From the NCBI GenBank assembly GCA_003173865.1, contig PJMF01000010.1, forward strand, positions 19,088 to 83,087: a stretch of DNA of 64,000 nucleotides, in the 5' to 3' direction. Below, piece by piece: positions 481-44,776 of the stretch (position 1 is its first letter; every line of letters starts with the position of its first letter). The DNA comes from Minisyncoccota bacterium. GTDB lineage: Bacteria > Patescibacteriota > Microgenomatia > UBA1400 > PJMF01. The position numbers and the translations under genes were made by a program. The notes beneath the pieces are model-generated. The model was not told the origin of the DNA and searched no databases. It saw nothing but the letters and a program-made list of their open reading frames with translations.

Positions 481-846
481 AATAAATAAAACGCCCATGT
501 ATCCACATCCGTAAAAGATGCAAATACACGGGCGTATAGGGAACGCGGTACCACCGTGCTTTCATAGTTTTGGTTTAAGTACAAAAAATCCCGCCACTGC
601 GGGACTCGAAACAAACCAAGACTATGCTTGTTGTTCGAGCACTCTGTTTCTGTCGTGACATGCTCTAGCGCTATAATGGGCGCTCCCATTCCGTGCTACT
701 ATCTTGAAGTTCAAGAATTGGTTTGGACTGCTCGGGAAGGTATTTCAGTTTTCTCAAGCTTGTTCAGCTTTCACCACCCGCTGAATCTCTCGTTACCACT
801 TGAGGACTTACTTGGTCTTCCGTCACTGCTTTATATATTTACTTGT
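481..846 (-). promoter_or_regulatory. T-box riboswitch leader with promoter and intrinsic terminator upstream of the aaRS gene
   Basis: Minus-strand -35 TTGACT (880-875) and -10 TAAAAT (858-853). AG-bulge-like GAGAGA and a distal-loop GGUGGUGAAA hairpin. T-box motif ACGGUGGUACCGCG at 557-544 (12/13 to consensus GGGUGGNACCGCG). Terminator ACGCCCGUGUAU...AUACAUGGGCGU plus U-run at 535-481. Confidence 0.6.
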
Positions 847-3175: not shown

Positions 3176-3547
3176 ATGAACACCAATCCTGTAAATTGGT
3201 TTGAACTTCCAGCTCTAGACTTAGTGCGTGCAAAGAAGTTTTATGAGGAAGTATTTGGTTTTGAGATGGAACCTGAAACAAATGCAGGTTATGAAATGCT
3301 CTCATTTCCGATGCAAAGAGGCGGTGTCGGAGCCACTGGTGGTTTAATGAAAGGGTTCGGGTACAAACCAAGTCTTGAGGGAACAACCGTTTATTTAGAC
3401 ACAGATAATATTGACGAAATTGAACGAAAAATCCTCTTAGCTGGTGGAAAAATACACGTCCCTAAAAAAAGTATCGGAAAATACGGCTATATATCCATTT
3501 TTGAAGACAGTGAAGGTAATCGCGTCGGACTATTTCAGAGAAAATAG
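3176..3547 (+). CDS. VOC/glyoxalase family protein
   Basis: WFELPALDLVRAKKFYEEVFGF is a typical VOC N-terminus. Confidence 0.6.
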   Translation: MNTNPVNWFELPALDLVRAKKFYEEVFGFEMEPETNAGYEMLSFPMQRGGVGATGGLMKGFGYKPSLEGTTVYLDTDNIDEIERKILLAGGKIHVPKKSIGKYGYISIFEDSEGNRVGLFQRK

Positions 3548-3616
3548 GATTATACATGAACTCATGTATATCACAATCGCGCCACTTTCGCGCCATAATT
3601 AAGTTCGCGGCACCTC

Positions 3617-3751
3617 TCAAAAGTTTGCTTGAGCCGTGACACCTCCACTACCATTACCATGAGATCCTTTCCTCTTTCCAAGCAAAACAGTGTCATGACG
3701 AATAACAATTACACCAACACCTACTTTTGGTCTTATGCGATTGACTTTCAT
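3617..3751 (-). pseudogene. Truncated NUDIX hydrolase remnant (44 codons)
   Basis: Minus-strand ATG at 3751. MKVNRIRPKVGVGVIVIRHDTVLLGKRKGSHGNGSGG then a stop. This matches a MutT/NUDIX N-terminus, but the Nudix box is missing. Confidence 0.4.
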
Positions 3752-3855
3752 TTTTTTTCGCTATTTTACCAGGCCATTCGGGAACTCAACCTGATCTTCA
3801 TACACTGACATCCATTTGTTTTGATATTTTGCAGTGTGTGATAATTGTTTGATGC

Positions 3856-4386
3856 TCATTGCTTTATCCAGTATCGATTTTTAAGCGCGCCATTTGGAAT
3901 TTGATATGTATCCTCTAACACCCCGCCATTTTTTTGAATAACTTTACTTGAACTAACATTGTCAACATCACATGTAACTAAAACATCTTTAATCCCTAGT
4001 TCGTGCGCCTTTTGAATTCCAAGCCGAAGTGCAAGTGTCCCGTATCCCTTATTCCGCTGCGTCGGCCGAATGTAGTAACCAATGTGGCCACCTTCATTTT
4101 TTAGCGACTCATTTAATTGATGACGAATATCCACTTGACCCAAAAACATATCACCATCAACGAGCCAGTACACTGTATGGGCAACATAGCCTACCGGTAA
4201 GTCAATCCCAAACGATTCATTACGAATACGAGTAATATAACTCTCAAAATCCTTATTTACATCTTCAGCTTTGAACCGAGAGTCAGGCTGATATTCCTCT
4301 AAAGCCTCAAGATAACTTTTTTTGTATTTCGTATCTGGAAGAACAAGTTCTGGCATAGATTTCGCTACGGTTTCACAATATGCCAC
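3856..4386 (-). CDS. GNAT N-acetyltransferase
   Basis: Acetyl-CoA binding region RNKGYGTLALRLGIQKAHELGI. Confidence 0.7.
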   Translation of the reverse strand: MAYCETVAKSMPELVLPDTKYKKSYLEALEEYQPDSRFKAEDVNKDFESYITRIRNESFGIDLPVGYVAHTVYWLVDGDMFLGQVDIRHQLNESLKNEGGHIGYYIRPTQRNKGYGTLALRLGIQKAHELGIKDVLVTCDVDNVSSSKVIQKNGGVLEDTYQIPNGALKNRYWIKQ

Positions 4387-16484: not shown

Positions 16485-17699
16485 TTATACACCACTTCCC
16501 ATCATATTTTGACCTATAGACTGGATGAGCGCACTTGAATTTTCACTCTCAACATATTCCAACCACGCCTCTGAGTTATTGAAGAGAGACTTGTACTGTG
16601 GATCTCTCTGAAAAGGAACTAGGGCTTTCTCAAATGTTTCTTTTTCTGAGAAACCACCAACTCCACCTACAACTACAATACGATATCTTTTTCCTTGTCG
16701 AATAGCCGTCAATGCATTATCGAGATAAATTTGGAGTTGAGCTGTCGTCTTCTCTCCACCTCCAATAAGAAAAACTGTTTCTACATTAAATTTTCGTGAA
16801 GCAATCCCATATTCACCTACGAGTTCATCCCCCCATTTACTCTCACTATCTGATGGGGGTTGAGCTATCAAAATTAAACTATTACTATCCACAACATACT
16901 TTTCAGGGTTTTTTGCTAATGGGAGAGACATCAAACTTTCAATTCCTTGTTCTTCTAACGGAGCTAAAATTTGCTTTTGAATTCCTGCACTATTACCAGC
17001 AGCTACTATGAGTGGTCTTTTCCCACCTACTTTTGAAGACTTGTACTCCAAAATTTCACTTACAATGAGCTGGCACACAGATTTTGCTCTTTGTGCCTGT
17101 TCAACAGTGAGACCTTCTTGCGTTTCACCGCTTTGGAGAACTGCATCCATTGTTTTTGCCCATCCATCAATAAGTACTTTGCGTGCGTAAAAAAATTCTG
17201 GATAGTGATCTCTTAATTTTTCTGCCTCAATTATACGATATTTATTTTCACCATTTCCACCGGCCATTTCATAACGCAGTTGTGAAACAATATTTTTAGC
17301 TTCTCGTAGTAACTCTTGTTGATCGACTATGTAAGAAAAAGGATCGTCAAGTTCGCGTTGCAGTACAGTATTCGTTGACTTGTACTCAGCAATTGTCACA
17401 CGGCGATCGATTGTTAAATCAGGAGAACTAAATCGCAAATATACTCTAAATCTTCCCCTATATACAATTTCCTCTCCAAAACTCCCATGTGTTTCCTCTT
17501 CTTCTGATTCAGATAATTCAAGTGTCCACCCTTTATGCATAAGGGGTGCAATCGTATCAAAAAGATGCTGGACTGACTTCATCCGCCGACCTCCCGGTCG
17601 CGGTTCTAAGTACGGAACTAGAGAAGACAATTTATTTCTGAGATCGTATCCACCAATTTTTTGTTCTTGGGAGTGATTGTCACCTTCTTTCCGCATCAT
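16485..17699 (-). CDS. SLOG/LOG-like Rossmann nucleotide-binding protein with N-terminal extension
   Basis: C-terminal half has PLIVAAGNSAGIQ and VVVGGVGGFSEKETFE, resembling LOG/DprA GGxGxM and PGGxGTxEE motifs. N-terminal roughly 200 aa unassigned. Confidence 0.4.
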   Translation of the reverse strand: MMRKEGDNHSQEQKIGGYDLRNKLSSLVPYLEPRPGGRRMKSVQHLFDTIAPLMHKGWTLELSESEEEETHGSFGEEIVYRGRFRVYLRFSSPDLTIDRRVTIAEYKSTNTVLQRELDDPFSYIVDQQELLREAKNIVSQLRYEMAGGNGENKYRIIEAEKLRDHYPEFFYARKVLIDGWAKTMDAVLQSGETQEGLTVEQAQRAKSVCQLIVSEILEYKSSKVGGKRPLIVAAGNSAGIQKQILAPLEEQGIESLMSLPLAKNPEKYVVDSNSLILIAQPPSDSESKWGDELVGEYGIASRKFNVETVFLIGGGEKTTAQLQIYLDNALTAIRQGKRYRIVVVGGVGGFSEKETFEKALVPFQRDPQYKSLFNNSEAWLEYVESENSSALIQSIGQNMMGSGV

Positions 17700-17816
17700 A
17701 GTATTGTGGATTATATCAAAAGTGGTTCTGAAATCGTCCTATAAAGTATCGTTTTGCTCGCTCGGTGGGACAATTTCAGAGTAACAAACTGGGCAGAAGT
17801 CACTCCATATCTTGAT

Positions 17817-17842
17817 TTTTATTTTACAAATGCAAAAGCGTT
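17817..17842 (+). repeat. Direct repeat DR-2 flanking the SLOG-like gene
   Basis: TTTTATTTTACAAATGCAAAAGCGTT. Confidence 0.6.
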
Positions 17843-17882
17843 GTTGAACTTTGCTCTCTAGCCTACAACCTTCTTCTCCTTG

Positions 17883-18170
17883 CTATTTATTTTTGGAAAA
17901 TTTTCTTTTTTCGAGCTCAACTAGGATATCATCTAAAGTGATTCCTCGCTCAACCAGTAAGACAAGTGTGTGAAATGTGAGATCCGCTATTTCAGAAATC
18001 AGACGCCCTTTGCTCTCATTCTTTGCGGCAATCACAACTTCAACGACTTCTTCACCAACTTTTTGAATAATTCGATCATCTCCATCGCGAAAAAGCGACG
18101 CAACATATGAGCCCTCGGGCATTGCTTTCTTTCGAGCCAAGATCGTATTGTAAAGTTCCTCAAGTGTCAT
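17883..18170 (-). CDS. hisE: Phosphoribosyl-ATP pyrophosphatase
   Basis: MazG-like LEELYNTILARK...EEVVEVVIAAKNE. Confidence 0.85.
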   Translation of the reverse strand: MTLEELYNTILARKKAMPEGSYVASLFRDGDDRIIQKVGEEVVEVVIAAKNESKGRLISEIADLTFHTLVLLVERGITLDDILVELEKRKFSKNK

Positions 18171-18508
18171 AGATCTCCTTGTGATATTTCATTAAAAAAA
18201 CAGGAATAGCTCCCCGTGTGACAAACAGCACTACCCATCAGTTCGGCCTTTATGAGGATCGCATCACAATCACAGTCAGTAATAATCGATTTCACCTTCA
18301 ATTTATTTCCTGATTCTTCACCTTTCATCCACAGTTTTTGTCTGCTTCTACTCCAGAAGTACACAAAGCCAGTTTCTTGAGTTTTTTCCAACGCTAATTG
18401 ATTCATATAGCCAAGCATCAAAATAAGACCAGTTTTGTCTTCCTGAATAATAGTTGGAACTAAACCATAGCCCTTTTTAAAATTAATTGTCTGTTTTTTC
18501 ATATTCAA
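18167..18508 (-). CDS. hisI: Phosphoribosyl-AMP cyclohydrolase
   Basis: [25 protein letters not shown]. Confidence 0.85.
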
Positions 18509-19260
18509 CTTCTCACAATAATGTTTTTTGATCGCAAAAAATCTTTTACTTCTTTAATTCTCAATTCGCCGAAGTGAAACAGGGAAGCAGCTAAAGCTGC
18601 ATCAGCTGATCCTTTTTGAAAAACATCCAAGAAGTCACTTTTCTCTCCAGCTCCCCCCGAGGCAATGACTGGCACTGTGACCACCTTAGAAATAGCTTTG
18701 GTCAGCACAAGATCATATCCTTGTTTGGTTCCATCTCTATCCATACTGGTTAAAAGAATTTCACCCGCACCTCTCCGAACTCCTTCCTTTGCCCACTCTA
18801 AAGCATTTAAACCAGTTTCAAGTTTGCCACCATTTATCAGTACTTCCCACCCAGAATCTTTTTTCTTGGCATCGATGGCTAAAACAATACATTGACTACC
18901 AAACAGTTTTGCAGCCTCTGTAATCAGATTAGGATTCTTTACAGCCGCTGTATTCAAAGAAACTTTATCTGCTCCTGCTAGTAAAACACTACGAATGTCC
19001 TGAATAGAATTAATGCCACCGCCCACGGTAAAAGGAATAAAAATTTCTTTTGCGACCTTTTTCACTACCTCTACCATTGTTTTTCGCTTTTCATTTGAGG
19101 CTGTTATATCAAGAAAAACTAATTCGTCAGCTCCTTCATCATTGTAGAATTTAGCCAACTCAACTGGATCACCAGCATCTTTTAAATCAACGAAGTTGAC
19201 ACCTTTAACTACACGACCGTTGTTTACATCGAGGCAAGGAATAATGCGTTTAGCTAACAT
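18505..19260 (-). CDS. hisF: Imidazole glycerol phosphate synthase cyclase subunit
   Basis: [12 protein letters not shown]... Start trimmed to M23 of the track ORF so that it abuts hisA. Confidence 0.9.
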
Positions 19261-19960
19261 TGTTTGCCTCTTGTAAATCAATTCGCCCTTCATAAATGGC
19301 CTTCCCAATAATGACTCCTGCAACATTCATCGTCTTCAGTTTTTTAATGTCAGTAATTGATGAGACACCACCAGCTACGATCAAAGGAGCTTTAACGATC
19401 TCAAGCAACTTACTTATGCCTTCATAGTCAGGTTGGGTGAGAGTGCCATCTTTCAATACATTAGTATAGATAAATTTCTTTACCCCTAACTGTTCAAGTC
19501 TTTGCGCTGTTTTCATCAAATCTTCACTTGTTTCTTCTTGCCAACCTCTTTTTGCTAGTTTCCCATTCTTGCTATCTAGAGAAACGATAACTTCTTCAGC
19601 ATAGAGACTAAGAATTTGTTTCAAAAGGTCTTCATTTTCTATAGCCAAAGTACCAATAATTACCTTACTGACCCCAATTGAAAGGAGTTGTTCAATTGTT
19701 TTTAAAGTTTGAATCCCACCCCCAACTTGAACAGGTACGGTAACTTTGACCATGATTTTTTGAACGGCTTCAAAGTTCTCTACTGCGCCGCTTTTCGCTC
19801 CATCTAAATCAACAATGTGTAATGCTTTTGCTCCTGCCAAGGTCCATTTCTGAGCCATTATCGTAGGATCGTCACTATAGACAGTTTCTTCAGAGAAATT
19901 GCCCTGTTTGAGGCGGACACACTTTCCGTTTCTGATATCGATAGCCGGAATAATTAACAT
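19250..19960 (-). CDS. hisA: ProFAR isomerase
   Basis: [17 protein letters not shown]. Confidence 0.9.
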
Positions 19961-20556
19961 ATGCGTTTTCCAAAATTGTTTAACAACTGCAGACCTGCTT
20001 CACTGCTTTTTTCTGGGTGAAACTGCACTCCAAAAATATTTTTCACTTCTAAAACGCTGCAAAAAGTTTGATTGTAATCTGTTTGACCTATGATAACGGC
20101 TTTATCATCGGGTTCACAATAATATGAGTGAACAAAGTAAAAATAACTGTCATCTAGAACGTCTTTAAATAGTTTTGATCGCGAGTTAGCTCTGACCTGA
20201 TTCCAACCAATTTGAGGGACTTTTAAGTCAGTAGCAAACTTTTTGACTTTCCCTTTCACAATATTTAAGCAGTCAACATTTCCTTCTTCACTTTGCGAAA
20301 AAAGCAATTGCATGCCTAAGCAAATTCCCAGAAGGGGTTTCCCTGAACGTACATACTCCACAATAACTTTTTCTAAACCTCTTTGTTGTAAATTCCTCAT
20401 CCCTTCTCCCGCAGCACCAACTCCAGGCAAAATAAGTCCTTGAGCATTTTTAATCACAGTAGGGTCACTCGAAATCTGAACAGGAATTTCAAGTTTTTCT
20501 AGAGCATTTTTGACGCTGGTCAGATTACCTAGTCCATAATCGATGATCGTTATCAT
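19954..20556 (-). CDS. hisH: Imidazole glycerol phosphate synthase glutaminase subunit
   Basis: MITIIDYGLGNL; catalytic Cys in GICLGMQ. Confidence 0.9.
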   Translation of the reverse strand: MITIIDYGLGNLTSVKNALEKLEIPVQISSDPTVIKNAQGLILPGVGAAGEGMRNLQQRGLEKVIVEYVRSGKPLLGICLGMQLLFSQSEEGNVDCLNIVKGKVKKFATDLKVPQIGWNQVRANSRSKLFKDVLDDSYFYFVHSYYCEPDDKAVIIGQTDYNQTFCSVLEVKNIFGVQFHPEKSSEAGLQLLNNFGKRIC

Positions 20557-21209
20557 AGTAATGCTTTTTCTTTTAACTTAGCTCTTAATTCCTCGAGATT
20601 TTTAATAACAAGATCTGCCCCAATCGATGGATAATCATTAGGCAAATTCTCGGTTAGACAGACTGTAAAAGCTCCACTCTCCTTTCCTGCTTGAACGCCT
20701 TTGTTGGAATCTTCAAGTACAATTGTTGAATCTGGTTGTGACCCTAACATTTCCATTGCTTTTACATACCCATCAGGAGCGGGTTTCGGCTTCATTCCTT
20801 CCGTATCGTTTAAAGACATCACGAATTGAAAAGTGTTTTTTGCTTCTAGTTTTGCAAGAACTAAATCAATCCAATTCTGTCGAGAAGAGGAAACTAGCCC
20901 AAGCGTAAAACCTTTCTCTATTAACTCGCTTAAAAATCTTTTAATTCCAGGAGTAAGTTTTGCTTCTGCATAAACAGTTTTGGCGTACTCATCATAAATA
21001 CGTAGATAATCTTGTTTACTGATCTGTAATCCATATTGACAAGCAATTTCATAAATAGCATTAATAGAGTTACCTAAAATCTGATCTTTAATTTTCGGGT
21101 AAGTTTCTTCTCCCATTAACTCAGCGAGAAAAACTTGCTCGTATTTTTCCCAGACAGGTTCACTATCAATAATTACGCCATCCATGTCAAAGATAAAAGC
21201 TTTTGTCAT
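20553..21209 (-). CDS. HAD-IA hydrolase, candidate histidinol-phosphate phosphatase
   Basis: MTKAFIFDMDGVIIDS (DxDG motif). Sits between hisB and hisH. Start trimmed from the track ORF; ATGA overlap with the hisB stop. Confidence 0.65.
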   Translation of the reverse strand: MTKAFIFDMDGVIIDSEPVWEKYEQVFLAELMGEETYPKIKDQILGNSINAIYEIACQYGLQISKQDYLRIYDEYAKTVYAEAKLTPGIKRFLSELIEKGFTLGLVSSSRQNWIDLVLAKLEAKNTFQFVMSLNDTEGMKPKPAPDGYVKAMEMLGSQPDSTIVLEDSNKGVQAGKESGAFTVCLTENLPNDYPSIGADLVIKNLEELRAKLKEKALL

Positions 21210-21865
21210 AGCTTGCCTTCCATCCCTGTACCTTTCAAACCAATGGTTGTACCAGCACGGTAAGGACATGGCCCTAAGGACTCTCGTAGGGCTTCACCAA
21301 AGGCTTTGAAAGCAGCTTCCCAGGTGTGGTGAGAATCTTCTCCAGCAAAAAACTGCACTTGAACAACACAACCTGCACCTTGGGAAAATCCATCAAAGAA
21401 TTGACGCAAGTTAGTGCTTAAAATATCTTCGACTTGCTCTAGTTTCATTCCTGGCACTTCACCCCTTAAAAAGGTATAGGCCCTTCCGTCAAAGGCAAGT
21501 GTGACAGCAACGAGCGCTTCATCAAAAGCCACGGTATAAAAACCTCTCTGATTCACGCCTTCCTCTTTACGAGCATCGAGCATTTCTCGCACAGCTCGTC
21601 CCAGGGCCAAGCCAGTATCTTCTACCACTATGTGATCGAGAGGTTCTGCGATAGTAGGAGTATAGGTGATGTCAAAATTCAAGCAGGCGCGTGAAGCTAT
21701 GCCTGTTAGCATGTGATTGAAAAATCGATTGCCGGTTTGGATTTTGTACTCACGTCGAGGCACATCTTCGATTGCTATATCGATTTGTGATTCCAATGTC
21801 ACTCGAGATAAAGAAATTTTTTCTTTTTTTGCTTCGTTAATAAACAAACCTAATTTTTTATTCAT
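21206..21865 (-). CDS. hisB: Imidazoleglycerol-phosphate dehydratase
   Basis: HMLTGIASRA; DSHHTWEAAFKAFG. Confidence 0.9.
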   Translation of the reverse strand: MNKKLGLFINEAKKEKISLSRVTLESQIDIAIEDVPRREYKIQTGNRFFNHMLTGIASRACLNFDITYTPTIAEPLDHIVVEDTGLALGRAVREMLDARKEEGVNQRGFYTVAFDEALVAVTLAFDGRAYTFLRGEVPGMKLEQVEDILSTNLRQFFDGFSQGAGCVVQVQFFAGEDSHHTWEAAFKAFGEALRESLGPCPYRAGTTIGLKGTGMEGKL

Positions 21866-23162
21866 ATACTCTCCTTTTTTGATTCAGTCGAACATTGACG
21901 CTATTCCAGTGTGCATCTAATTTTTCAATTCCGGACACAACATCAACAATCTCAGCTAAGTTTTCTAAACCTTCTTTAGTGAGATACTGTATTTCTGAAG
22001 ATTTCTGAAAGGTTTCAACACTTACTGCTGACACCATCTTTGACCAGTAGCCAGTCGGTAAAATGTGATTCGTGCCACTGGCATAATCTCCCACAGCGAC
22101 TGGAGCGTATTGGCCGAGAAATATAGACCCTGCATTTTTAATTTGGGGCAAAACCGCAAATGGTTCTGCAACCAACACTTCTAAGTGTTCGGGGCTGTAG
22201 TCATTCGTAAAATCAATCGCTTCTTGCCAGGATTCTGTGATAACTGCACAAGAATATTTTGCAAGTGATTTTTCAATTACTTCCCGTCTGGATAAATATT
22301 GAATTTGCCGCTCAACTTCTTTTTGCGTAGCTTTGGCCAGCTTTTCTGAATCAGTGACTAAAACTCCAGCAGCATCAGGCGCATGCTCAGCACGAGCCAA
22401 AATATCCGCCGCACAGAAAATTGGATTAGCATCTTTATCAGCCAAGATGATTGCTTCAGATGGTCCCGCCACCATATCAATATTAACTTTGCCATAGGCC
22501 AACATTTTGGCAGCTTGGGTATAAATGCTTCCTGGTCCGGAAATTTTTAAAACAGGCTGAATCGTTTCTGTTCCATAGGTCATCGCCGCAATTCCAGCAA
22601 TACCACCAACTCTATACACCTCATCACAACCAGCTAAGTCAGCAGCAATTAACATTTCTGGATACTCACCAGTAGGCGGGTAACACGCAACAACTCGGGG
22701 AACACCGGCCGCTTTGGCAGTAACGGTCAGAATTTGCATCACAGTTGGTAGCGGAACTTGACCAGCTGGCACTGCCAAACCAACTGAGGCGATTGGCGCA
22801 ATCTTGTAACCAACTTGTACTCCAGGCACAAAAGATTTCAATACAGTTTCCTGCTCAGCTTTTGAAAGCGCATTTTGTTTGGAAATACTGATTTGACGTT
22901 TCAGCACTTCCACTACACGAGGATCGACAATTTTATATGCGTTCTCAATATCCTTGCGCGTGACTCTCAAATCTTTCAATTCAAAATCTTTTTTATCAAA
23001 CTGACGCGTGTACTTTACAATTCCCACATCACCTTCATTTTTAATGGTTTCCATCCAGCCGGCCACGTATTCTTTGATTTCAGAAATATCGAGCATGGCA
23101 CGCTCAGTAATTTTTTTCTTTACTTGTGGGTCGGTTTCAGACCAGCGATAAATATTAAGCAT
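21858..23162 (-). CDS. hisD: Histidinol dehydrogenase
   Basis: Start trimmed to MLNIYRW. Typical HisD core. Confidence 0.9.
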   Translation of the reverse strand: MLNIYRWSETDPQVKKKITERAMLDISEIKEYVAGWMETIKNEGDVGIVKYTRQFDKKDFELKDLRVTRKDIENAYKIVDPRVVEVLKRQISISKQNALSKAEQETVLKSFVPGVQVGYKIAPIASVGLAVPAGQVPLPTVMQILTVTAKAAGVPRVVACYPPTGEYPEMLIAADLAGCDEVYRVGGIAGIAAMTYGTETIQPVLKISGPGSIYTQAAKMLAYGKVNIDMVAGPSEAIILADKDANPIFCAADILARAEHAPDAAGVLVTDSEKLAKATQKEVERQIQYLSRREVIEKSLAKYSCAVITESWQEAIDFTNDYSPEHLEVLVAEPFAVLPQIKNAGSIFLGQYAPVAVGDYASGTNHILPTGYWSKMVSAVSVETFQKSSEIQYLTKEGLENLAEIVDVVSGIEKLDAHWNSVNVRLNQKRRVYE

Positions 23163-24249
23163 AAGTTTTTTTTTCCTCCAAAACCTTGTTAATGCAATCG
23201 ACAACTTTTTGCTGATACTGTTCTTGGGGAATCCCTAAATAAAAATACTGTTCGCCAAATCCTTCATAAATAGAGCAGTCTTTGATAAAAATATTTTCTT
23301 TTTTTAGCTGCTCTTTGAGTTGAGCCCCAGTTGTTTTGGAAAGAATCTTGACGATAGAAAAGGTCGTTTTTGTGTCGAGAACTTCTAACTGATTAATTTG
23401 CCGGAGCTTGGTTTCAAACTTTTTCTTTAACTCCTGAAATTCTTTGATTGATTGTTTAATTAATTCTGGTTGCCGTAGGATCGTAATGGCGGCGGCTTGA
23501 GCAAATCGGTTAACACAAAACACTTGATTTGTCTGTTGAAGTCTATTTAAGTAGGCAGCGACTTCTTGATTACAGATTACATACCCCAATCTTGCACCGG
23601 CCAAAGCAAATACTTTTGAGAAACTTCGGATGATAATCAAGTTTGGATAATTTTTTGCTAGTTGAGCAGCTGTCACTCCACCTAATTCAAAGTAACACTC
23701 ATCAATTACCAGCAAACACTTGATCTTCTTCGCAATATATTCAATTTGGTCTTTAGTTAATAAAAGATTTCCAGTCGGATTATTTGGGTTGGCAATCCAG
23801 ACAACTTTTGTTTTTTCTGTTACAGCACCCAACAGTTTTTCTACATTCAGAGAAAAGTCTTCCTCTAATGACACAGTGACTGTCTTTGCACCCATCATTT
23901 GACTGACTGATTCAAAACAGGGATATGAAGGTAGGGGCATGACCACTTCATCACCTTCAGCAATAAATACTTTGGCAATTAGCTCCAGTGCCTCATCACT
24001 GCCATTGGTGGGAATAATATTCCCAGCCTCAACTTGATTGTATTGAGCAAGCTCTTCTCTCAATTCTTTTTTTGTTGGACTGAGATAAAGATTAATTTTC
24101 TCAATTTCTTTTTCGACCGCTTCTTTATATACCTCAATAAACTTTTGATTTTCTCCCCACAACAATCTCATCCCCGTATTGTCGGGAATATCACCCCAGT
24201 TTATTTCTTGCATCTCTCGAATTTGTTTGCGGACTAGTTGGACAATCAT
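23155..24249 (-). CDS. hisC: Histidinol-phosphate aminotransferase
   Basis: PLP-lysine region SFSKVFALAGARLGY. Confidence 0.85.
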   Translation of the reverse strand: MIVQLVRKQIREMQEINWGDIPDNTGMRLLWGENQKFIEVYKEAVEKEIEKINLYLSPTKKELREELAQYNQVEAGNIIPTNGSDEALELIAKVFIAEGDEVVMPLPSYPCFESVSQMMGAKTVTVSLEEDFSLNVEKLLGAVTEKTKVVWIANPNNPTGNLLLTKDQIEYIAKKIKCLLVIDECYFELGGVTAAQLAKNYPNLIIIRSFSKVFALAGARLGYVICNQEVAAYLNRLQQTNQVFCVNRFAQAAAITILRQPELIKQSIKEFQELKKKFETKLRQINQLEVLDTKTTFSIVKILSKTTGAQLKEQLKKENIFIKDCSIYEGFGEQYFYLGIPQEQYQQKVVDCINKVLEEKKTYA

Positions 24250-25508
24250 ATGTCTTGATCTTTCAACTTCTCTAAAACTTCTTGAAAACTGCAGGTAGTT
24301 TGTTCTCCTGTCTGGAGATTCTTGAGAACTAACTGTTGTTTACTCACCTCGTCAGAACCTGCAATAATGGCAAAGGGGATATTTTTCCTATCCGCGTATT
24401 TCAAGTGAGTAGATAATTTTTCTTGGCTGTTCAGGTATATCTCGGTATTAATACCTTGATCACGTAAGTCGCTTGCTATTTTGAGTGAATACTCTTCAAA
24501 AGATGGATCAAAAATGGACACAAACACTTGAGCTGTAGACTTGGCCGAATCTGGCCAGAGATTTTGATCAAGAATGACATCAACGATGCGATCTAGTCCC
24601 AAAGTTGTTCCTACTGCTGGCAAATCGGTACTTCCAAGTGAACCCATCAATTTGTCATATCTGCCCCCACCCGTAATTGACCCGATCTTCGGTTCAGTCA
24701 CTACAGTTTCAAAAATTGGACCAGTATAGTAATCAAGTCCACGAGCTAAAGTGGGGTCAAACTTCCACGAAGATTTTTGAACACCCAGACTCTCAAGAGC
24801 GGCAATGACTTTTTGGAGATACTCGTCCGGCTGAGCATTCTTGAGTGAAACAAAAATATTCTTGATTGTGTTTGAAGAGATGCCCTTTTCTGCAAGTTCT
24901 ACTTCTACTTCTTCTTGAGTCTTTTTATCTAACTTATCAATGGACTGGATAACCGATAAAGTTTTGTCTTTCGGCACTCCAGCTTTTTCCATCACATTAA
25001 ACAAGACTTGGCGACTATTGATACGAATCGTGAACTCGGCAAAATCAAGTCGCTGCAAACACTTTTCGATTAAAGCGACAATTTCCGCATCAGCCAGAGG
25101 TGAGGTATTCCCCACAATATCAATGTCGCATTGGGTAAATTCACGATACCGACCTTTGGCAGGTTTATCTGCTCGAAAAACATTCTGAATTTGATACCGC
25201 TTAAATGGTAAAGGCAAATCATTTTTATATTGAGAGACCACTCTCGCCAAAGGCACAGTGAGGTCATATCGCAAACCGACTTTGCGCTTCCCGTTATCTA
25301 GAAATTTATAGACAAGCTTATCTGCTTCATCACCATACTTCCCAAGCAACAACGCTTGTTGCTCTAATGTAGGCGTTTCCAGAGGCTCATAGCCAAAGGA
25401 CTCAAACACTTCTACAAGAGTTTCTTTCACTTGCTTTCTGATCGTCGCTTGCGCTGGTAATAAATCGCGAAAGCCTTTCAAAGTGATCGGTTGATTCTTT
25501 TTCTTCAT
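24246..25508 (-). CDS. hisS: Histidyl-tRNA synthetase, full length with anticodon-binding domain
   Basis: N-terminal KGFRDLLP. 420 aa including the C-terminal anticodon-binding domain, so not a HisZ. Confidence 0.8.
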   Translation of the reverse strand: MKKKNQPITLKGFRDLLPAQATIRKQVKETLVEVFESFGYEPLETPTLEQQALLLGKYGDEADKLVYKFLDNGKRKVGLRYDLTVPLARVVSQYKNDLPLPFKRYQIQNVFRADKPAKGRYREFTQCDIDIVGNTSPLADAEIVALIEKCLQRLDFAEFTIRINSRQVLFNVMEKAGVPKDKTLSVIQSIDKLDKKTQEEVEVELAEKGISSNTIKNIFVSLKNAQPDEYLQKVIAALESLGVQKSSWKFDPTLARGLDYYTGPIFETVVTEPKIGSITGGGRYDKLMGSLGSTDLPAVGTTLGLDRIVDVILDQNLWPDSAKSTAQVFVSIFDPSFEEYSLKIASDLRDQGINTEIYLNSQEKLSTHLKYADRKNIPFAIIAGSDEVSKQQLVLKNLQTGEQTTCSFQEVLEKLKDQDI

Positions 25509-25519
25509 ACTTCTCCTTT

Positions 25520-26392
25520 TTACAAAATCATTTTTTCAATTGGTAAAACGATAATTCCTGATGCACCAACACTCTTGAGTTTTTCAATAGTTTCCCAAAA
25601 CGTGTCTTCTTTAATGACTGTTTGCACTGATAACCACCCTTCTTTTGCTAAAGGGGAAATCGTTGGTGCTTTTAATCCAGGTGTAATCTTCTTTAATTTC
25701 GGCAGAATTTCTGCTGGAGCATTCATCATCACGTATTTGTAATTCTGGGCTGACAAAACCCCTTTGAAACGGATCATGAGTTTTTCTAGCAATACTCGTT
25801 TACTCTCTACGGATGAAGTTTTATCGTTTGCAATAAGAACCGCTTCTGAATCATAAATTTTCGTGAGCGGGCGCAAATCATTTAATGTCAGGGTACTCCC
25901 CGTTGATGTGAGATCGGCAATGGCTTGTGCTACACCCAACGTTGGCGCAATTTCCACGGAGCCATTAATTTTGATTGTTTCAACGGAAATTCCATTTTTC
26001 TTAAAGAAGTTTTTGGTTGAGTTGGGATAGGTGGTGGCGATAGTTTTTCCGCTCAAATCGGCTATTGCTTGTACTCCTGATTCCTTTGGTACAGCTAAGG
26101 TTAAGGCACAGAATCCATATCTCAAATTCAAAAGTTTCTTCACATTTGCCGGTCTTTCTTCATACAGCAAATTTTGACCAAGAATCCCAATATCCACGCT
26201 TCCTGAAGCCACATAATCTGGAATGTCATCATCACGAACATACACAATTTCGAGTGGAAAGTTTCGACAACTTGCAAAGAGCTTCTGCGTGTAACTTTCA
26301 AACTCCAAACCTGATTTCCGCAAAAAATCGAGCGTGTCATCAGTCAGACGACCACCCTTTTGAATTGCGAGTTTTAAACTTTTGTTGTTCAT
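25520..26392 (-). CDS. hisG: ATP phosphoribosyltransferase, long form
   Basis: MNNKSLKLAIQKGGRL. 290 aa implies the long regulatory form. The track ORF 25520..26602 is an artefactual extension through tRNA-His. Confidence 0.85.
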   Translation of the reverse strand: MNNKSLKLAIQKGGRLTDDTLDFLRKSGLEFESYTQKLFASCRNFPLEIVYVRDDDIPDYVASGSVDIGILGQNLLYEERPANVKKLLNLRYGFCALTLAVPKESGVQAIADLSGKTIATTYPNSTKNFFKKNGISVETIKINGSVEIAPTLGVAQAIADLTSTGSTLTLNDLRPLTKIYDSEAVLIANDKTSSVESKRVLLEKLMIRFKGVLSAQNYKYVMMNAPAEILPKLKKITPGLKAPTISPLAKEGWLSVQTVIKEDTFWETIEKLKSVGASGIIVLPIEKMIL

Positions 26393-26422
26393 ATTTGCTA
26401 TATATTCCTTTTTCAAATCTCT

Positions 26423-26497
26423 TGGACGGCTGAGGGGAGTTGAACCCCCGACTCTCTTCTCCACAGGAAGATGCTCTACCGCTGAGCTACAGCCGTC
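26423..26497 (-). tRNA. tRNA-His (GUG) with encoded G-1
   Basis: Minus strand reads GACGGCUG-UAGCUCAGCGGUAGAGC-A-UCUUC-CUGUGGA-GAAGA-...TTCAACT...CAGCCGUC. Anticodon GUG. 8-bp acceptor stem GACGGCUG/CAGCCGUC (G-1:C73). Full CCA not encoded. Confidence 0.85.
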
Positions 26498-26511
26498 ATA
26501 TTTTTTACAAC

Positions 26512-26757
26512 AAAAAACCTCCCGTTCATTACTCGCCACGTCAAAAACAACATGACAAATAAGGAACGAGAGGCAATAAAAAAGGACCTCCCGCGGTCCC
26601 ATCCTTAGTTCCTAAAAGTATTTCTCTTCTAGGCTCTTAGGCCGGCTCCGCTAATGCGACATCGGCTGTTGGATTTAACGGTTCAACTTCCGTAAGGCAT
26701 TTTGGCCTTCAGCTCGTGGATCGTGACTCCACTCAAACGCTTTTGTATTAACTTGTA
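26512..26757 (-). promoter_or_regulatory. His-specific T-box riboswitch leader with short Stem I
   Basis: Hairpin GUGGA-GUCACGA-UCCAC with CAC in the loop (26725-26723). F-box CCGUUA (26681-26676). T-box motif GGAUGGGACCGCGG (26610-26591) where UGGG's G matches the His C73 discriminator. Antiterminator element GGGAGG versus terminator CCUCUCGUUCC...GAACGGGAGG plus U6 (26573-26512). Confidence 0.6.
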
Positions 26758-26763
26758 ACAGGT

Positions 26764-26811
26764 ATTGTAGAGTATTAATTTAAAATGTCAACATGTTAAC
26801 TTATTAACATG
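26764..26811 (-). promoter_or_regulatory. Sigma-70-like promoter (-35 TTGACA, 16-nt spacer, -10 TACAAT) with abutting palindromic operator
   Basis: Minus strand -35 at 26791-26786 and -10 at 26769-26764. Inverted repeat CATGTTAA-ctta-TTAACATG at 26792-26811 lies immediately upstream of the -35. Confidence 0.45.
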
Positions 26812-26814
26812 GAT

Positions 26815-27117
26815 TTATCTTTTGGAAGAACCATATGTTCTCTGAAGAATAGCTGCATACCCTTGCCACTTTTCCTTGTAAAGCCATTGAGCAACTCGCG
26901 TCACAGTGGTTGTGCTTGTGCCCACTTTCTTGGAAATATCGAGGTATGAAAGTTTCGTCGTCCAGAGCAACTTAGCAATTTGAAATCGACTAGAGAACTC
27001 TTCAATTTCAGCGGGGGTGAGGATATCTCTCAAAAAAGAAGCTACTTCTTTTTGTCCTTTAAGAGAGGAAACAGCATTGATAAGCTCTTTGTCTTGTTTT
27101 GAAGGGTATGTTTGCAT
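26815..27117 (-). CDS. TrpR-family (YerC/YecD-like) DNA-binding protein
   Basis: 100 aa. ...LWTTKLSYLDISKKVGTSTTTVTRVAQWL carries an HTH resembling the YerC/TrpR-like family. Confidence 0.5.
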   Translation of the reverse strand: MQTYPSKQDKELINAVSSLKGQKEVASFLRDILTPAEIEEFSSRFQIAKLLWTTKLSYLDISKKVGTSTTTVTRVAQWLYKEKWQGYAAILQRTYGSSKR

Positions 27118-27272
27118 GTTAATATTTTAACATTGAGAATCTTGCAGACCAACATCAGCTTGCCAATTATTCAGGATTAATCACATAGAAGAGAATGACC
27201 CTAAATCTTAATTCAAATAAACTCAAATCTGAAGCTATGTTGATTTAGTGCTACTTGATTCAGCGATGCTGC

Positions 27273-27295
27273 ACGTGTGGGAGTTTATCCGAACA
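27273..27295 (+). repeat. Dispersed repeat copy C
   Basis: CACGTGTGGGAGTTTATCCGAAC. Confidence 0.55.
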
Positions 27296-27467
27296 TTTTT
27301 TAGTTGAGAATATTTCACTAGCATTTTAATTTCTGAGGTAAGTAAAAAACAACAAAAGCTCCTTAAGGAGCTTTTGCTTTTGCCTGGAAAAGGCACAATT
27401 GTAGGGTATACAATACCCTTATTATACATAAGAAAAAGAAAAAATCAAATTACTATAGGCTATATTG

Positions 27468-27573
27468 CGGAGGAAGCGGGATTCGAACCCGCGAAAAACA
27501 TTCCTGTATACCCTACAAATATGTCTTTTCCAGATTGTCACTCTAGTGCATTCGGCCGCTCTGCCACCCCTCC
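27468..27573 (-). tRNA. Atypical 106-nt tRNA-like gene (Tyr-like type II architecture, anticodon loop GUGACAA)
   Basis: GGAGGGG-UG-GCAGAGCGGCCGAAUGC-A-CUAGA-GUGACAA-UCUGG, then a 37-nt variable hairpin, then GCGGG-UUCGAAU-CCCGC-UUCCUCC-G. Acceptor 5 WC plus 2 G.U pairs. Too long for a standard tRNA. Confidence 0.4.
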
Positions 27574-28464
27574 CTTTTCATTCATACTTTTAAGTTGATT
27601 TTTCAAGTAATCTATTCCCTTTTGTAAAATGGAATAGCCATTCCCTTTTTGCTTCACATAAGTGCTCTTTATATTAGAGATATTTCCACTAGTAAAGTTA
27701 GATGTAGATATAGAGTCTTTTAGCTTATCAGATAGATATTCAATATCAGTTGCTGTTAATGATTTGATATTTCCCTTGGCTTCTGCATATATTAAGAGCC
27801 ACAAAATCTTATCGGATCTTTTCGCGAGATGATGAAATCGTGGGAATCCTTCTAATTCTGACATTACTTCTAGAGATTCCAGTCCTGCAGTTAAGATTTG
27901 TTTTTTCTTTTTGGTTTTATTGGTTCCTACTGAGAAGCCACCTTTTGGACGATTTGCGAAGTTTGAACTAAGTACTGAAAGCCCCGTTCTTGTGACGTAG
28001 TATTTGTTAGAATTTCCCAATTGAGAAATATATCCTAACTTAACTGTGTGTTTAAAATCACGAGCTAAATTTTTTGTTGGGTCTTTTTCTCCTGCTTTTA
28101 TGAAAAGATCTTTAATGTCACTTGGAGAAAAGTTATCCTGAGAATTAACTTTTTGAAAATAATTCCCCAAAATTAATACTTTATCTGGATTAAACTTAGC
28201 TTCTGGGTAAGATAAAAGCTCTTCTTGAGGAGAAAGACTTGGCGAAGTGTATTGGGAAAAACCCATTTCAGGATTTTGAGGAATTTGAGTCAAGCTAGAA
28301 TTTGAAACACCCTCTTCTTTTTCATCCTCATTACCGACTTTAATAGCAGCTATAATTTTTAAAGCAAGTTCAAAAGAAATTTCATTTTCAAATGATAGAG
28401 ATTCATCTGTTATTAAAATTTTTGGCATGTTTTGAACAGTATGCCTTCCAGTCCGTGATGTCAA
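27538..28464 (-). CDS. Hypothetical 308-aa protein whose stop lies inside the tRNA-like gene
   Basis: ORF with no recognisable domain. The last 12 codons overlap the 5' half of the tRNA-like sequence. Confidence 0.35.
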   Translation of the reverse strand: MTSRTGRHTVQNMPKILITDESLSFENEISFELALKIIAAIKVGNEDEKEEGVSNSSLTQIPQNPEMGFSQYTSPSLSPQEELLSYPEAKFNPDKVLILGNYFQKVNSQDNFSPSDIKDLFIKAGEKDPTKNLARDFKHTVKLGYISQLGNSNKYYVTRTGLSVLSSNFANRPKGGFSVGTNKTKKKKQILTAGLESLEVMSELEGFPRFHHLAKRSDKILWLLIYAEAKGNIKSLTATDIEYLSDKLKDSISTSNFTSGNISNIKSTYVKQKGNGYSILQKGIDYLKNQLKSMNEKGGVAERPNALE

Positions 28465-44527: not shown

Positions 44528-44776
44528 GATTCGAACCTAGAACCATCTCCTTACAAAGGTCCCTTAGTTACCTAAAGGTTTGGACTATCTTATCCGCCAA
44601 ACTGTGTTTGGTGGCTGGGTATATAGTCTCTACACATTTACCCCGCCGCGGCGGGGATTTAGCTCGGGATTTTCCTCTGAAGAGGAGTTCCCCGAATTAG
44701 CCCAGTTTTCCACTATCTATTACTAGACAGCGCTGCCATGTAACAGGGAGCCGCGCTACCATTGCGCCACCGAGGA
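44513..44776 (-). tRNA. tRNA-Asn (GUU) interrupted in the anticodon loop by a group I intron
   Basis: 5' exon UCCUCGG-UG-GCGC-AAUGGUA-GCGC-G-GCUCC-CUGU. 3' exon UAAGGAGA-UGGUU-CUAGG-UUCGAAU-CCUAG-CCGAGGA-G-CCA. Spliced anticodon loop is CUGUUAA. Confidence 0.7.
44554..44742 (-). ncRNA. Group I intron (about 189 nt, no ORF)
   Basis: P-like AAUUCGGGGAA, Q-like AAUCCCCGCC, R-like GUAGAGACUAUA, S-like AAGAUAGUCC. 5' exon ends in U. omega-G precedes the 3' exon. IGS GCAG pairs with exon CUGU. Confidence 0.65.

Follow-up and report, generated by a model that had tools for sequence, protein, structure and literature searches.

What controls a histidine (his) operon in which a tRNA-His gene lies between the leader and the first enzyme gene? 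The question is raised by a 64,000-nucleotide (nt) stretch of DNA, here called the window, from a Minisyncoccota bacterium of the Microgenomatia (assembly GCA_003173865.1, contig PJMF01000010.1, positions 19,088 to 83,087 of the forward strand). On the minus strand of the window, from 27132 down to 17883, a hisR-like gene is followed by an operator and promoter, a T-box-like leader, tRNA-His, hisG, hisS, and the other his genes. The leader is probably a His T-box with a short Stem I that attenuates transcription of an operon in which tRNA-His comes first, then hisG, hisS, and the remaining his genes.

Proteins of the window were compared with NCBIfam (TIGR) and Pfam family models, and RNAs were searched with Rfam and ARAGORN. 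Relatives of HisG were drawn from data with one genome per species. The closest are Microgenomates (Levy-, Davies-, Gottesman-, and Roizmanbacteria) at 58-78% identity, and the next are Chloroflexota at ~50% identity. The comparison covers 41 hisG loci of the Candidate Phyla Radiation (CPR), namely the window and 40 relatives that are denoted by L-numbers.

The leader upstream of hisG

The leader occupies the region between the promoter and the tRNA-His gene, and it consists of the following elements.

26512..26742, minus strand: T-box-like leader as a whole
26711..26741, minus strand: reduced Stem I, with a base helix AGC/GCU and GA/GA (kink-turn-like), a 5-bp helix GUGGA/UCCAC, and the 7-nt loop GUCACGA
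26694..26709, minus strand: Stem II, a hairpin of 5 bp whose A-rich loop is conserved
26668..26692, minus strand: Stem IIA (CGG/CCG) and a putative Stem IIB pseudoknot (GUUG with CAAC), from the alignment
26641..26666, minus strand: extra stem that separates IIA/B from Stem III; its internal loop (AUGU facing GRAG) is conserved and its tip varies
26611..26633, minus strand: Stem III
26561..26606, minus strand: discriminator/antiterminator, with helix A1 (AAGGA/UCCUU), the 7-nt bulge UGGGACC (26601-26595), and helix A2 (GCGGGAGG/CCUCUCGU)
26578..26600, minus strand: T1, a small hairpin GGGACC-GCGGGA-GGUCCU followed by U6, from a terminator scan
26512..26573, minus strand: T2, the main intrinsic terminator, CCUCUCGUUC with GAACGGGAGG, with an upper stem of ~15 bp and U6; -32.5 kcal/mol

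Is this leader a T-box? A local E-value search with the Rfam T-box model RF00230, run separately from the search at the gathering threshold of 93 bits, matched 26559-26746 on the minus strand over the full length of the model (43.8 bits, E 3.1e-8). The alignment takes in the kink-turn region, Stem II, Stem IIA, Stem III, and AAGGAUGGGACCGCG, and it reduces the distal 75 positions of Stem I to 6 nt in the leader. Of the 40 related CPR loci, 17, all from Microgenomates, have the same leader before hisG, which gives a set of 18 leaders from species-level genomes with the window included. A covariance model (R1) that was built from 15 short-Stem-I his leaders scored all 18 at 119-211 bits, each directly upstream of hisG, and found nothing comparable elsewhere in the 675 kb searched.

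Further evidence comes from covariation. In the model-based alignment of the 18 leaders, which is an alignment fitted to the structure, 94.4% of the cells were paired and compensatory changes were present in 22 of 41 pairs. None of 500 shuffled controls attained the observed paired fraction or covariation score, and slid controls were 33-54% paired. Compensatory changes supported 4/5 pairs of the Stem I hairpin, 5/5 of Stem II, and 8/8 of Stem III. The same three stems were predicted independently by RNAalifold on a plain MAFFT alignment, and the minimum-free-energy fold of the window leader alone contained Stem I, Stem II, Stem IIA, the extra stem, Stem III, T1, and T2.

The specificity of the leader can be read from its two invariant predicted tRNA contacts. 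The specifier CAC, which denotes His and thus matches the his operon, lies at 26725-26723 within an invariant 7-nt apical loop that is likened to an anticodon loop, as a U precedes the triplet and a purine follows it. The T-box sequence is also present, with A1 and A2 placed around a 7-nt bulge of the UGGNACC type, and the final G of UGGG complements C73 of tRNA-His. The computed stability of the antiterminator is -13.4 kcal/mol. None of the 18 leaders departs from CAC, the loop GUCACGA, the bulge UGGGACC, or the sequence of helices A1 and A2, and because of this invariance these parts carry no covariation information. RNAalifold proposed an alternative register in which UCCU takes GGGA of the bulge as its partner. 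Columns that do not vary are of no help in choosing between the registers, and the alternative was not adopted because the canonical register matches the Rfam model. We conclude that the leader is a genuine, divergent T-box specific for tRNA-His; CAC matches the GUG anticodon, and the last G of UGGG matches C73.

The first-pass annotation had arrived at a His-specific T-box from the letters of the window, and the recovery of the leader by R1 in 17 other Microgenomates genomes, together with the compensatory changes in Stems I, II, and III, bears this out. Its description of a short Stem I with the specifier in a terminal loop (GUGGA-GUCACGA-UCCAC), of CAC in that loop, and of a UGGG bulge ending in G was likewise correct. 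The covariance search that it had called for returned no hit at the gathering score and the full-length match at E 3.1e-8 in the local search.

The remaining elements of the leader vary more. The base of Stem I has the pattern AGC-GUUU-GA...GA-GCU, which fits a kink-turn (GA motif) as a sequence pattern only and aligns to RF00230; an extra hairpin is inserted at this base in L012, L016, L017, and L039. In Stem IIA, G:C is replaced by A:U in five leaders. The putative IIB pseudoknot is retained with other sequences in L008, L009, L010, and L016 and is weak in each single sequence. In a pseudoknot shuffle test made sequence by sequence, most helices (3-5 bp, A/U-rich loops) were not above chance. 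The IIB pseudoknot and the outer helix of the extra stem have modest support. Candidates for what stands in for the missing S-turn and elbow-binding platform are the A-rich loop of Stem II and the AUGU/GRAG internal loop.

Does the short class include specificities other than His? A scan of metagenome contigs for AAGGATGGHACCGCG, neither exhaustive nor specific, covered at least 80 loci and revealed no other specificity. Twelve weak R1 matches (26 bits or less) in metagenome contigs were rejected, since they are long-Stem-I T-boxes of the ordinary kind from low-GC bacteria, one example being a leader that precedes alaS.

Terminators and the tRNA-His gene

How would binding of tRNA-His control transcription? 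As is canonical for T-boxes, T2 takes the 3' half of the antiterminator as its own 5' strand. The T2 hairpin spans ~25 bp overall, and a T2 with a U-run is present in 16 of the 18 leaders at -27 to -63 kcal/mol, with upper stems of unrelated sequence. The alternative fold is not a Shine-Dalgarno sequestrator, as it is a terminator with a U-run followed by the tRNA gene, and hisG lies 119 nt further on. A possible exception is L021, in which CUCUC could pair with GGAGAG in the manner of Shine-Dalgarno sequestration.

In the proposed mechanism, the nascent leader would offer CAC, in its anticodon-loop-like 7-nt loop, to the GUG anticodon of tRNA-His. If the tRNA is uncharged, its 3' end (C73-C-C-A) would pair with UGGG, the antiterminator would be stabilised, and T2 would be prevented. 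If the tRNA is charged or missing, T1 and T2 would fold and transcription would end 14 nt before the tRNA gene.

The canonical T-box picture has no counterpart of T1. Its 5' strand is the tRNA-binding bulge itself and its 3' strand lies within the A2 loop. A1 and A2 are unable to prevent T1, as the polymerase reaches the antiterminator's 3' strands only once the T1 U-run has been made. What, then, does T1 do? Speculatively, it could be a hairpin-dependent pause site, or a weak early terminator or anti-antiterminator that has to be beaten by the tRNA 3' end. A pause or early-termination checkpoint at T1 could also give the tRNA time to bind, a speculation put forward because the leader has no elbow-binding platform.

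One possibility, a tentative one, is that T1 is the decision point, at which the tRNA 3' end competes for UGGG, and that T2 is a fail-safe; in a variant of this idea T1 is purely a pause site. The T1 U-run is found in 18/18 leaders and the hairpin in 17/18, with 3' partners in three registers (GGUCC, GCGGUC, and GCGGU). Furthermore, T1 stays intact beside insertions of 26 nt (L016) and ~150 nt (L006) that follow it, and L015 and L021 have T1 and no T2. However, the T1 hairpin is a weak one of 4-6 bp (-4.8 to -10.4 kcal/mol) and is absent from L009. A 4-bp tRNA contact without A1 and A2 would be unlikely to outcompete it, judging from the structures reviewed in PMC7583486, and it is T2 that overlaps the antiterminator canonically.

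The product that lies directly behind T2 is the following gene.

26425..26497, minus strand: tRNA-His(GUG), with an encoded G-1 (26497) and C73 (26425); CCA is not encoded

ARAGORN called this gene at 26496-26424, and the Rfam tRNA model gave it 64.3 bits. G-1 and C73 give an acceptor stem of 8 bp. The gene is not peculiar to the window. A tRNA-His gene lies between the attenuator terminator and hisG in 12 of the 41 CPR loci, namely 10 of the 18 T-box loci and L022 and L023, two loci that carry a leader-peptide attenuator and have tRNA-His in the same slot. G-1 and C73 are present in all 12 operon-borne tRNA-His genes (the window and 11 related loci), and CCA is encoded in some only.

Is the tRNA transcribed from the operon promoter? 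It starts 14 nt past the T2 U-run in the window, and this spacing is 3-5 nt in L039 and L023. A scan of 17000-28000 that took in consensus sigma-70 sites found no promoter-like site between 26392 and 26760. Because of this spacing and the lack of a promoter-like site, co-transcription of tRNA-His with the operon by read-through is the most economical reading.

Alternatively, tRNA-His may be made mainly from its own promoter in or just after T2, in which case the tRNA would be no more than a neighbor and the his mRNA may start there too. An A-rich TAAAAAAT, 5-12 nt before the tRNA, is a possible weak -10, and the scan was limited to consensus sites. A sole-copy tRNA-His under a switch that depends on tRNA-His would also pose a bootstrapping problem. 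Against this, no site at 26392-26760 passed the scan, the best -35 candidate having 3/6 matches, and no more than 3-5 nt separate the U-run from G-1 in L039 and L023. The tRNA also occupies the same slot behind two unrelated types of attenuator, and because the slot is the same, it is the position behind an attenuator that appears to be kept. A separate promoter is therefore considered rather unlikely, and read-through from the T-box leader is retained as the preferred reading.

Some operon-borne tRNA-His genes and the spacers around them have unusual features. The tRNA-His genes of L001 (3902-3973), L004 (3902-3974), L022 (3907-3978), and L037 (3917-3990) lack G18-G19 in the D-loop, which reads AAAAGUA, and their T-loop (AGCAUUA or AGCGUUA) is non-canonical; because of these changes the elbow of these tRNAs is atypical. 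Such a tRNA would be tolerated by a T-box that has no elbow-binding platform. The gene of L001 was overlooked by ARAGORN and scored 49 bits with Rfam. In L039 (~3785-3950), a complete tRNA-His lies inside the apparent anticodon loop of a second tRNA-His-like gene, whose outer halves are GGUGGCAUUAGCUCAAUGGUAGAGCGUCCCGAU and AUCGGGAAUGUUGGCGGUUCAAAUCCGCUAUGCCACCC. L013 (~3830-3926) and L019 (~3770-3864) share a conserved structured spacer between T2 and tRNA-His with the layout GGUGGAACGU-hairpin-ACGUUCCUACCACGU-hairpin-ACGUGGUGG. Two helices of this spacer exclude each other, and one of them is formed with the 5' acceptor strand of the tRNA. A hairpin-rich spacer of ~120-140 nt separates the attenuator terminator from hisG in L006 (3860-4000), L007 (~560-685), and L025 (~3870-4000). 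The spacers of L006 and L007 have the short motif GCTCTTGCCGA in common, and none of the three had an Rfam match at gathering.

The repressor, the weighing of the T-box, and the genes of the operon

The region upstream of the leader contains a second potential control element.

26764..26791, minus strand: sigma-70-type promoter TTGACA-16-TACAAT, 11/12 matches, the top promoter-like site in the scan
26786..26810, minus strand: operator copy 1, an 18-bp palindrome ATGTTAATAAGTTAACAT at 26810-26793, overlapped by a weaker site AGTTAACATGTTGACA at 26801-26786
26815..27117, minus strand: hisR-like gene, 100 amino acids (aa), TrpR family (YerC/YecD), TIGR02531 and PF01371
27117..27132, minus strand: operator copy 2 TGTTAAAATATTAACA, a perfect match

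Transcription of the operon would start from the TTGACA/TACAAT promoter. The palindrome ends 1 nt short of the -35, and the weaker site, offset from it by 8 bp, covers the -35. This double arrangement is also found in L002, L010, L027, L029, L033, and L038. Two sites at an 8-bp offset recall the tandem binding of TrpR. The operator core TGTTAA-N4-TTAACA has exactly two perfect copies in the window, where 0.35 are expected. Copy 1 of the core (26809-26794) lies 4 nt past the stop codon of the hisR-like gene and abuts the -35. Copy 2 is putatively an autoregulatory site of the hisR-like gene because its right half-site overlaps the ATG of that gene. This ATG sits within the half-site TTAACATG, and because no Shine-Dalgarno sequence is visible, the hisR-like mRNA is possibly leaderless.

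The hisR-like protein passes the cut-off of TIGR02531 (51.7 bits; cut-off 42.2) and matches PF01371 Trp_repressor (68.7 bits, E 4.6e-19). Its best relatives in the PDB include 3FRW (E 1e-11), 3G1C (Eubacterium eligens HisR, E 1.6e-10), and 3KOR. It is thus a candidate histidine repressor. When histidine is plentiful, it would occupy the TGTTAA-N4-TTAACA sites and block the his promoter. A hisR homolog adjoins hisG, in tandem or divergently, in 24 of the 41 CPR loci; no Chloroflexota locus shows one there. Near the promoter, the operator motif occurs in ~18 of the 24 loci with adjacent hisR, as opposed to two poor matches in the 17 loci without hisR.

HisR has been described as a TrpR-family histidine repressor with its own regulon, for which 3G1C serves as the structural representative (Ashniev et al. 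2022, PMC9413887). The window resembles that system in having a small protein of the Trp_repressor fold encoded beside his genes and palindromic operators both at the his promoter and at the repressor's own gene. Its phylum is outside the coverage of that study, which described operator consensus sequences as lineage-specific and the combination of a HisR repressor and a T-box on one operon as rare (PMC9413887).

Several observations weigh against tRNA-dependent attenuation by the leader under HisR control. At its gathering threshold, RF00230 found no T-box in the window, in 17 CPR loci, or in 17 Chloroflexota hisG loci, and the local score of the window leader is less than half of that threshold. 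With neither an AG bulge nor a distal loop on a long Stem I, the leader lacks the elbow-binding platform, and its Stem II has no recognisable S-turn (AGUA/GAA); transcriptional T-boxes generally require a long Stem I with an elbow-binding motif (PMC7583486). The antiterminator, being invariant, has no support from covariation. C73 pairs with G-1 in tRNA-His, and contact with UGGG needs this pair to be opened. If the tRNA-His and hisS here are the sole copies, full shut-off would be lethal, and leakiness or extra promoters would be required. The published HisR operator of Firmicutes and Actinobacteria is cacTTTA-N6-TAAAgtg and not TGTTAA-N4-TTAACA (PMC9413887), and hisR is not adjacent in 13 of the 18 T-box loci. 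Lastly, the his operon is read here from sequence and not from transcripts.

Could the leader be a decaying T-box relic that acts as a constitutive partial terminator, with regulation left to the HisR-like repressor alone? The low Rfam score and the absence of a platform said to be essential for transcriptional T-boxes (PMC7583486) would agree with decay, but this is very improbable, as CAC, the 7-nt loop, UGGGACC, and every stem, with compensatory changes, are retained in 18 species-level genomes, 13 of these have no adjacent hisR, and lineages without the T-box have His leader-peptide attenuators.

The last point deserves attention in its own right. Among the 23 CPR loci without a T-box, 20 have, at the place where the T-box sits, a short open reading frame (ORF) that encodes HH or HHH, and behind it alternative hairpins and a terminator. 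At this position of the CPR loci, a T-box and a His leader peptide exclude each other. These sister Microgenomates loci resemble the enterobacterial type of his leader-peptide attenuator, whereas the window has a T-box and no His-rich leader ORF. Because the T-box-less lineages carry such attenuators, a histidine sensor at the RNA level is under selection. In L014 (~3385-3700), L020 (~227-560), and L032 (~12-330), the hisR ORF itself ends in a run of His codons before the attenuator hairpins (...KSHHHTTLGAV*, ...NHHRTSLVAV*, and ...LNHHTLAQAG*, respectively), and because of this run the hisR gene appears to double as a leader peptide.

What would the T-box control in addition to the tRNA? The protein-coding genes of the operon are the following.

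25520..26392, minus strand: hisG, long form, 290 aa, TIGR00070 194 bits, HisG and HisG_C domains
24246..25508, minus strand: hisS, histidyl-tRNA synthetase, 420 aa, TIGR00442, HGTP_anticodon
17883..24249, minus strand: hisC, hisD, hisB, a HAD-IA phosphatase, hisH, hisA, hisF, hisI, and hisE, from family models

The junctions between the genes measure +11, -4, -8, -4, -7, -4, and -4 nt, or are longer overlaps depending on the start codon. The position of the HAD-IA protein makes it a probable histidinol-phosphatase; if it is one, all ten steps of histidine synthesis are covered. The hisS product passes the cut-off of TIGR00442 (402.5 bits; cut-off 286.75), scores below that of the HisZ model TIGR00443 (201.9 bits; cut-off 271.65), and carries the anticodon-binding domain HGTP_anticodon (PF03129). 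Long-form HisG needs no HisZ. A HisZ reading of hisS was rejected in view of the pass of the HisRS equivalog model, the anticodon-binding domain, and the long form of HisG. Of the 41 CPR loci, the window and L001 alone have hisS inside the operon; L035 has it elsewhere, beside a tRNA-His. No other locus thus shows the arrangement as completely as the window does. Relatives start hisG at ATGGCAAAT where the window has ATAGCAAAT (26392-26401); the first ATG in the window is three codons downstream and lies 17 nt from the AAGGA Shine-Dalgarno sequence.

Each item in the inventory of the first-pass annotation was found where it had been placed. This applies to the palindromic operator abutting a near-consensus promoter, to a tRNA-His(GUG) with encoded G-1 and 8-bp acceptor stem 14 nt past the terminator, to the long hisG and the whole his pathway with its overlaps, and to a full-length hisS that is a true HisRS with an anticodon-binding domain. 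Its coordinates held except for the start of hisG, which is corrected to the ATG at 26392. It had overlooked the hisR-like gene with its own operator, the T1 hairpin, the His leader-peptide attenuators that take the place of the T-box in sister lineages, the precedent for an apical-loop specifier in actinobacterial ileS T-boxes, and a second T-box.

525..835, minus strand: second T-box leader, canonical long Stem I, AGAGA bulge, GGUGGUGAAAG distal loop, own terminator

RF00230 scored this leader at 74.2 bits, below the gathering threshold, with E 5e-16. Its T-box sequence is GGUGGUACCGCG, whose UGGU calls for a discriminator A, and its specifier is probably UAC (Tyr). The partial ORF downstream (154 aa, from 463 and running off the window start) had no Pfam match. 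Because of this second leader, T-boxes are regarded as at home in this genome. Two further RNA genes of the window were overlooked by ARAGORN. One, at 27468-27573 on the minus strand, is a tRNA-like gene (Rfam tRNA, 45 bits) with a tRNA-Tyr/Ser-like body, a ~35-nt insertion at the position of the variable arm, and an anticodon loop GUGACAA with the apparent anticodon GAC. The other is a tRNA with exons at ~44530-44775 (UCCUCGGUGGCGCAAUGGUAGCGCGGCUCCCUG... and ...GGUUCGAAUCCUAGCCGAGGAGCCA), whose anticodon loop is interrupted by a group I intron at 44561-44754 on the minus strand (Rfam 56.5 bits).

Known systems and what the arrangement would mean

The T-box, the HisR-type repressor, the intrinsic terminator, and the mixed tRNA-mRNA operon are all of known kinds. 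Mixed tRNA-mRNA operons exist, for example thrU-tyrU-glyT-thrT-tufB of E. coli. As in that operon, the tRNA here would be co-transcribed with mRNA and freed by RNase P and 3' processing; unlike there, it would be the ligand of the riboswitch that governs its own transcription. In a literature search that was not exhaustive, no canonical His T-box was reported to have the gene of its ligand tRNA as the first operon product. Canonical His T-boxes, such as those of the Lactococcus lactis his operon and of Corynebacterium glutamicum, share with the window the sensing of tRNA-His and the control of his genes by terminator and antiterminator (PMC9413887). However, these T-boxes of Firmicutes and Actinobacteria have a long Stem I whose internal loop holds the specifier, and they reach the Rfam threshold.

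The closest structural parallel concerns translational control. A short Stem I that carries the specifier in its apical loop has already been published, mostly for the actinobacterial translational ileS T-boxes (Sherwood 2015; structures 6UFM and 6UFG; via PMC7583486). Like the his leader, these have no elbow-binding double T-loop platform, and they keep Stem II, a IIA/B-like element, Stem III, and the order A1-bulge-A2, with an insertion atop A2. The two differ in specificity (His with CAC and UGGG here, Ile there) and in output (an intrinsic terminator and a tRNA gene here, a Shine-Dalgarno sequestrator there). They also differ in the bare 5-bp Stem II without S-turn, the extra stem before Stem III, the T1 hairpin, and the Microgenomates host.

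In the open-access literature, no short-Stem-I apical-loop T-box paired with strong terminators was found, nor one of that class with His specificity, nor any T-box in CPR/Patescibacteria. Likewise, it contained nothing relevant on histidine biosynthesis in Microgenomates, no T1 element, and no ligand tRNA gene as the first product of a controlled transcript.

Taken together as a single device, a transcription-terminating T-box that makes up for the lack of an elbow platform through T1, a pause or early-terminator hairpin masking UGGG until the tRNA 3' end captures it, whose first product is the gene of its own ligand tRNA, and to which HisR adds a second input at the level of the amino acid, is a possibility that is put forward with reserve. 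What would follow for the biology of T-boxes? The current view is that a long Stem I provides the fast capture of tRNA that transcriptional switches need and that a short one serves slow, reversible translational control. A short Stem I combined with strong terminators in at least 18 species-level genomes challenges this rule as a natural counter-example. Furthermore, T-boxes of CPR bacteria, two of them in this window, sit below the thresholds of Rfam-based catalogues. The his operon of these bacteria appears as one operon with exchangeable regulators, which may be a T-box, a His leader peptide, or a repressor ORF that doubles as a leader peptide. The window also offers a rare case of a tRNA gene placed behind a sensor of its own charging state. 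If the proposed mechanism is true, uncharged tRNA-His would drive the production of more tRNA-His, HisRS, and histidine in one feedback loop.

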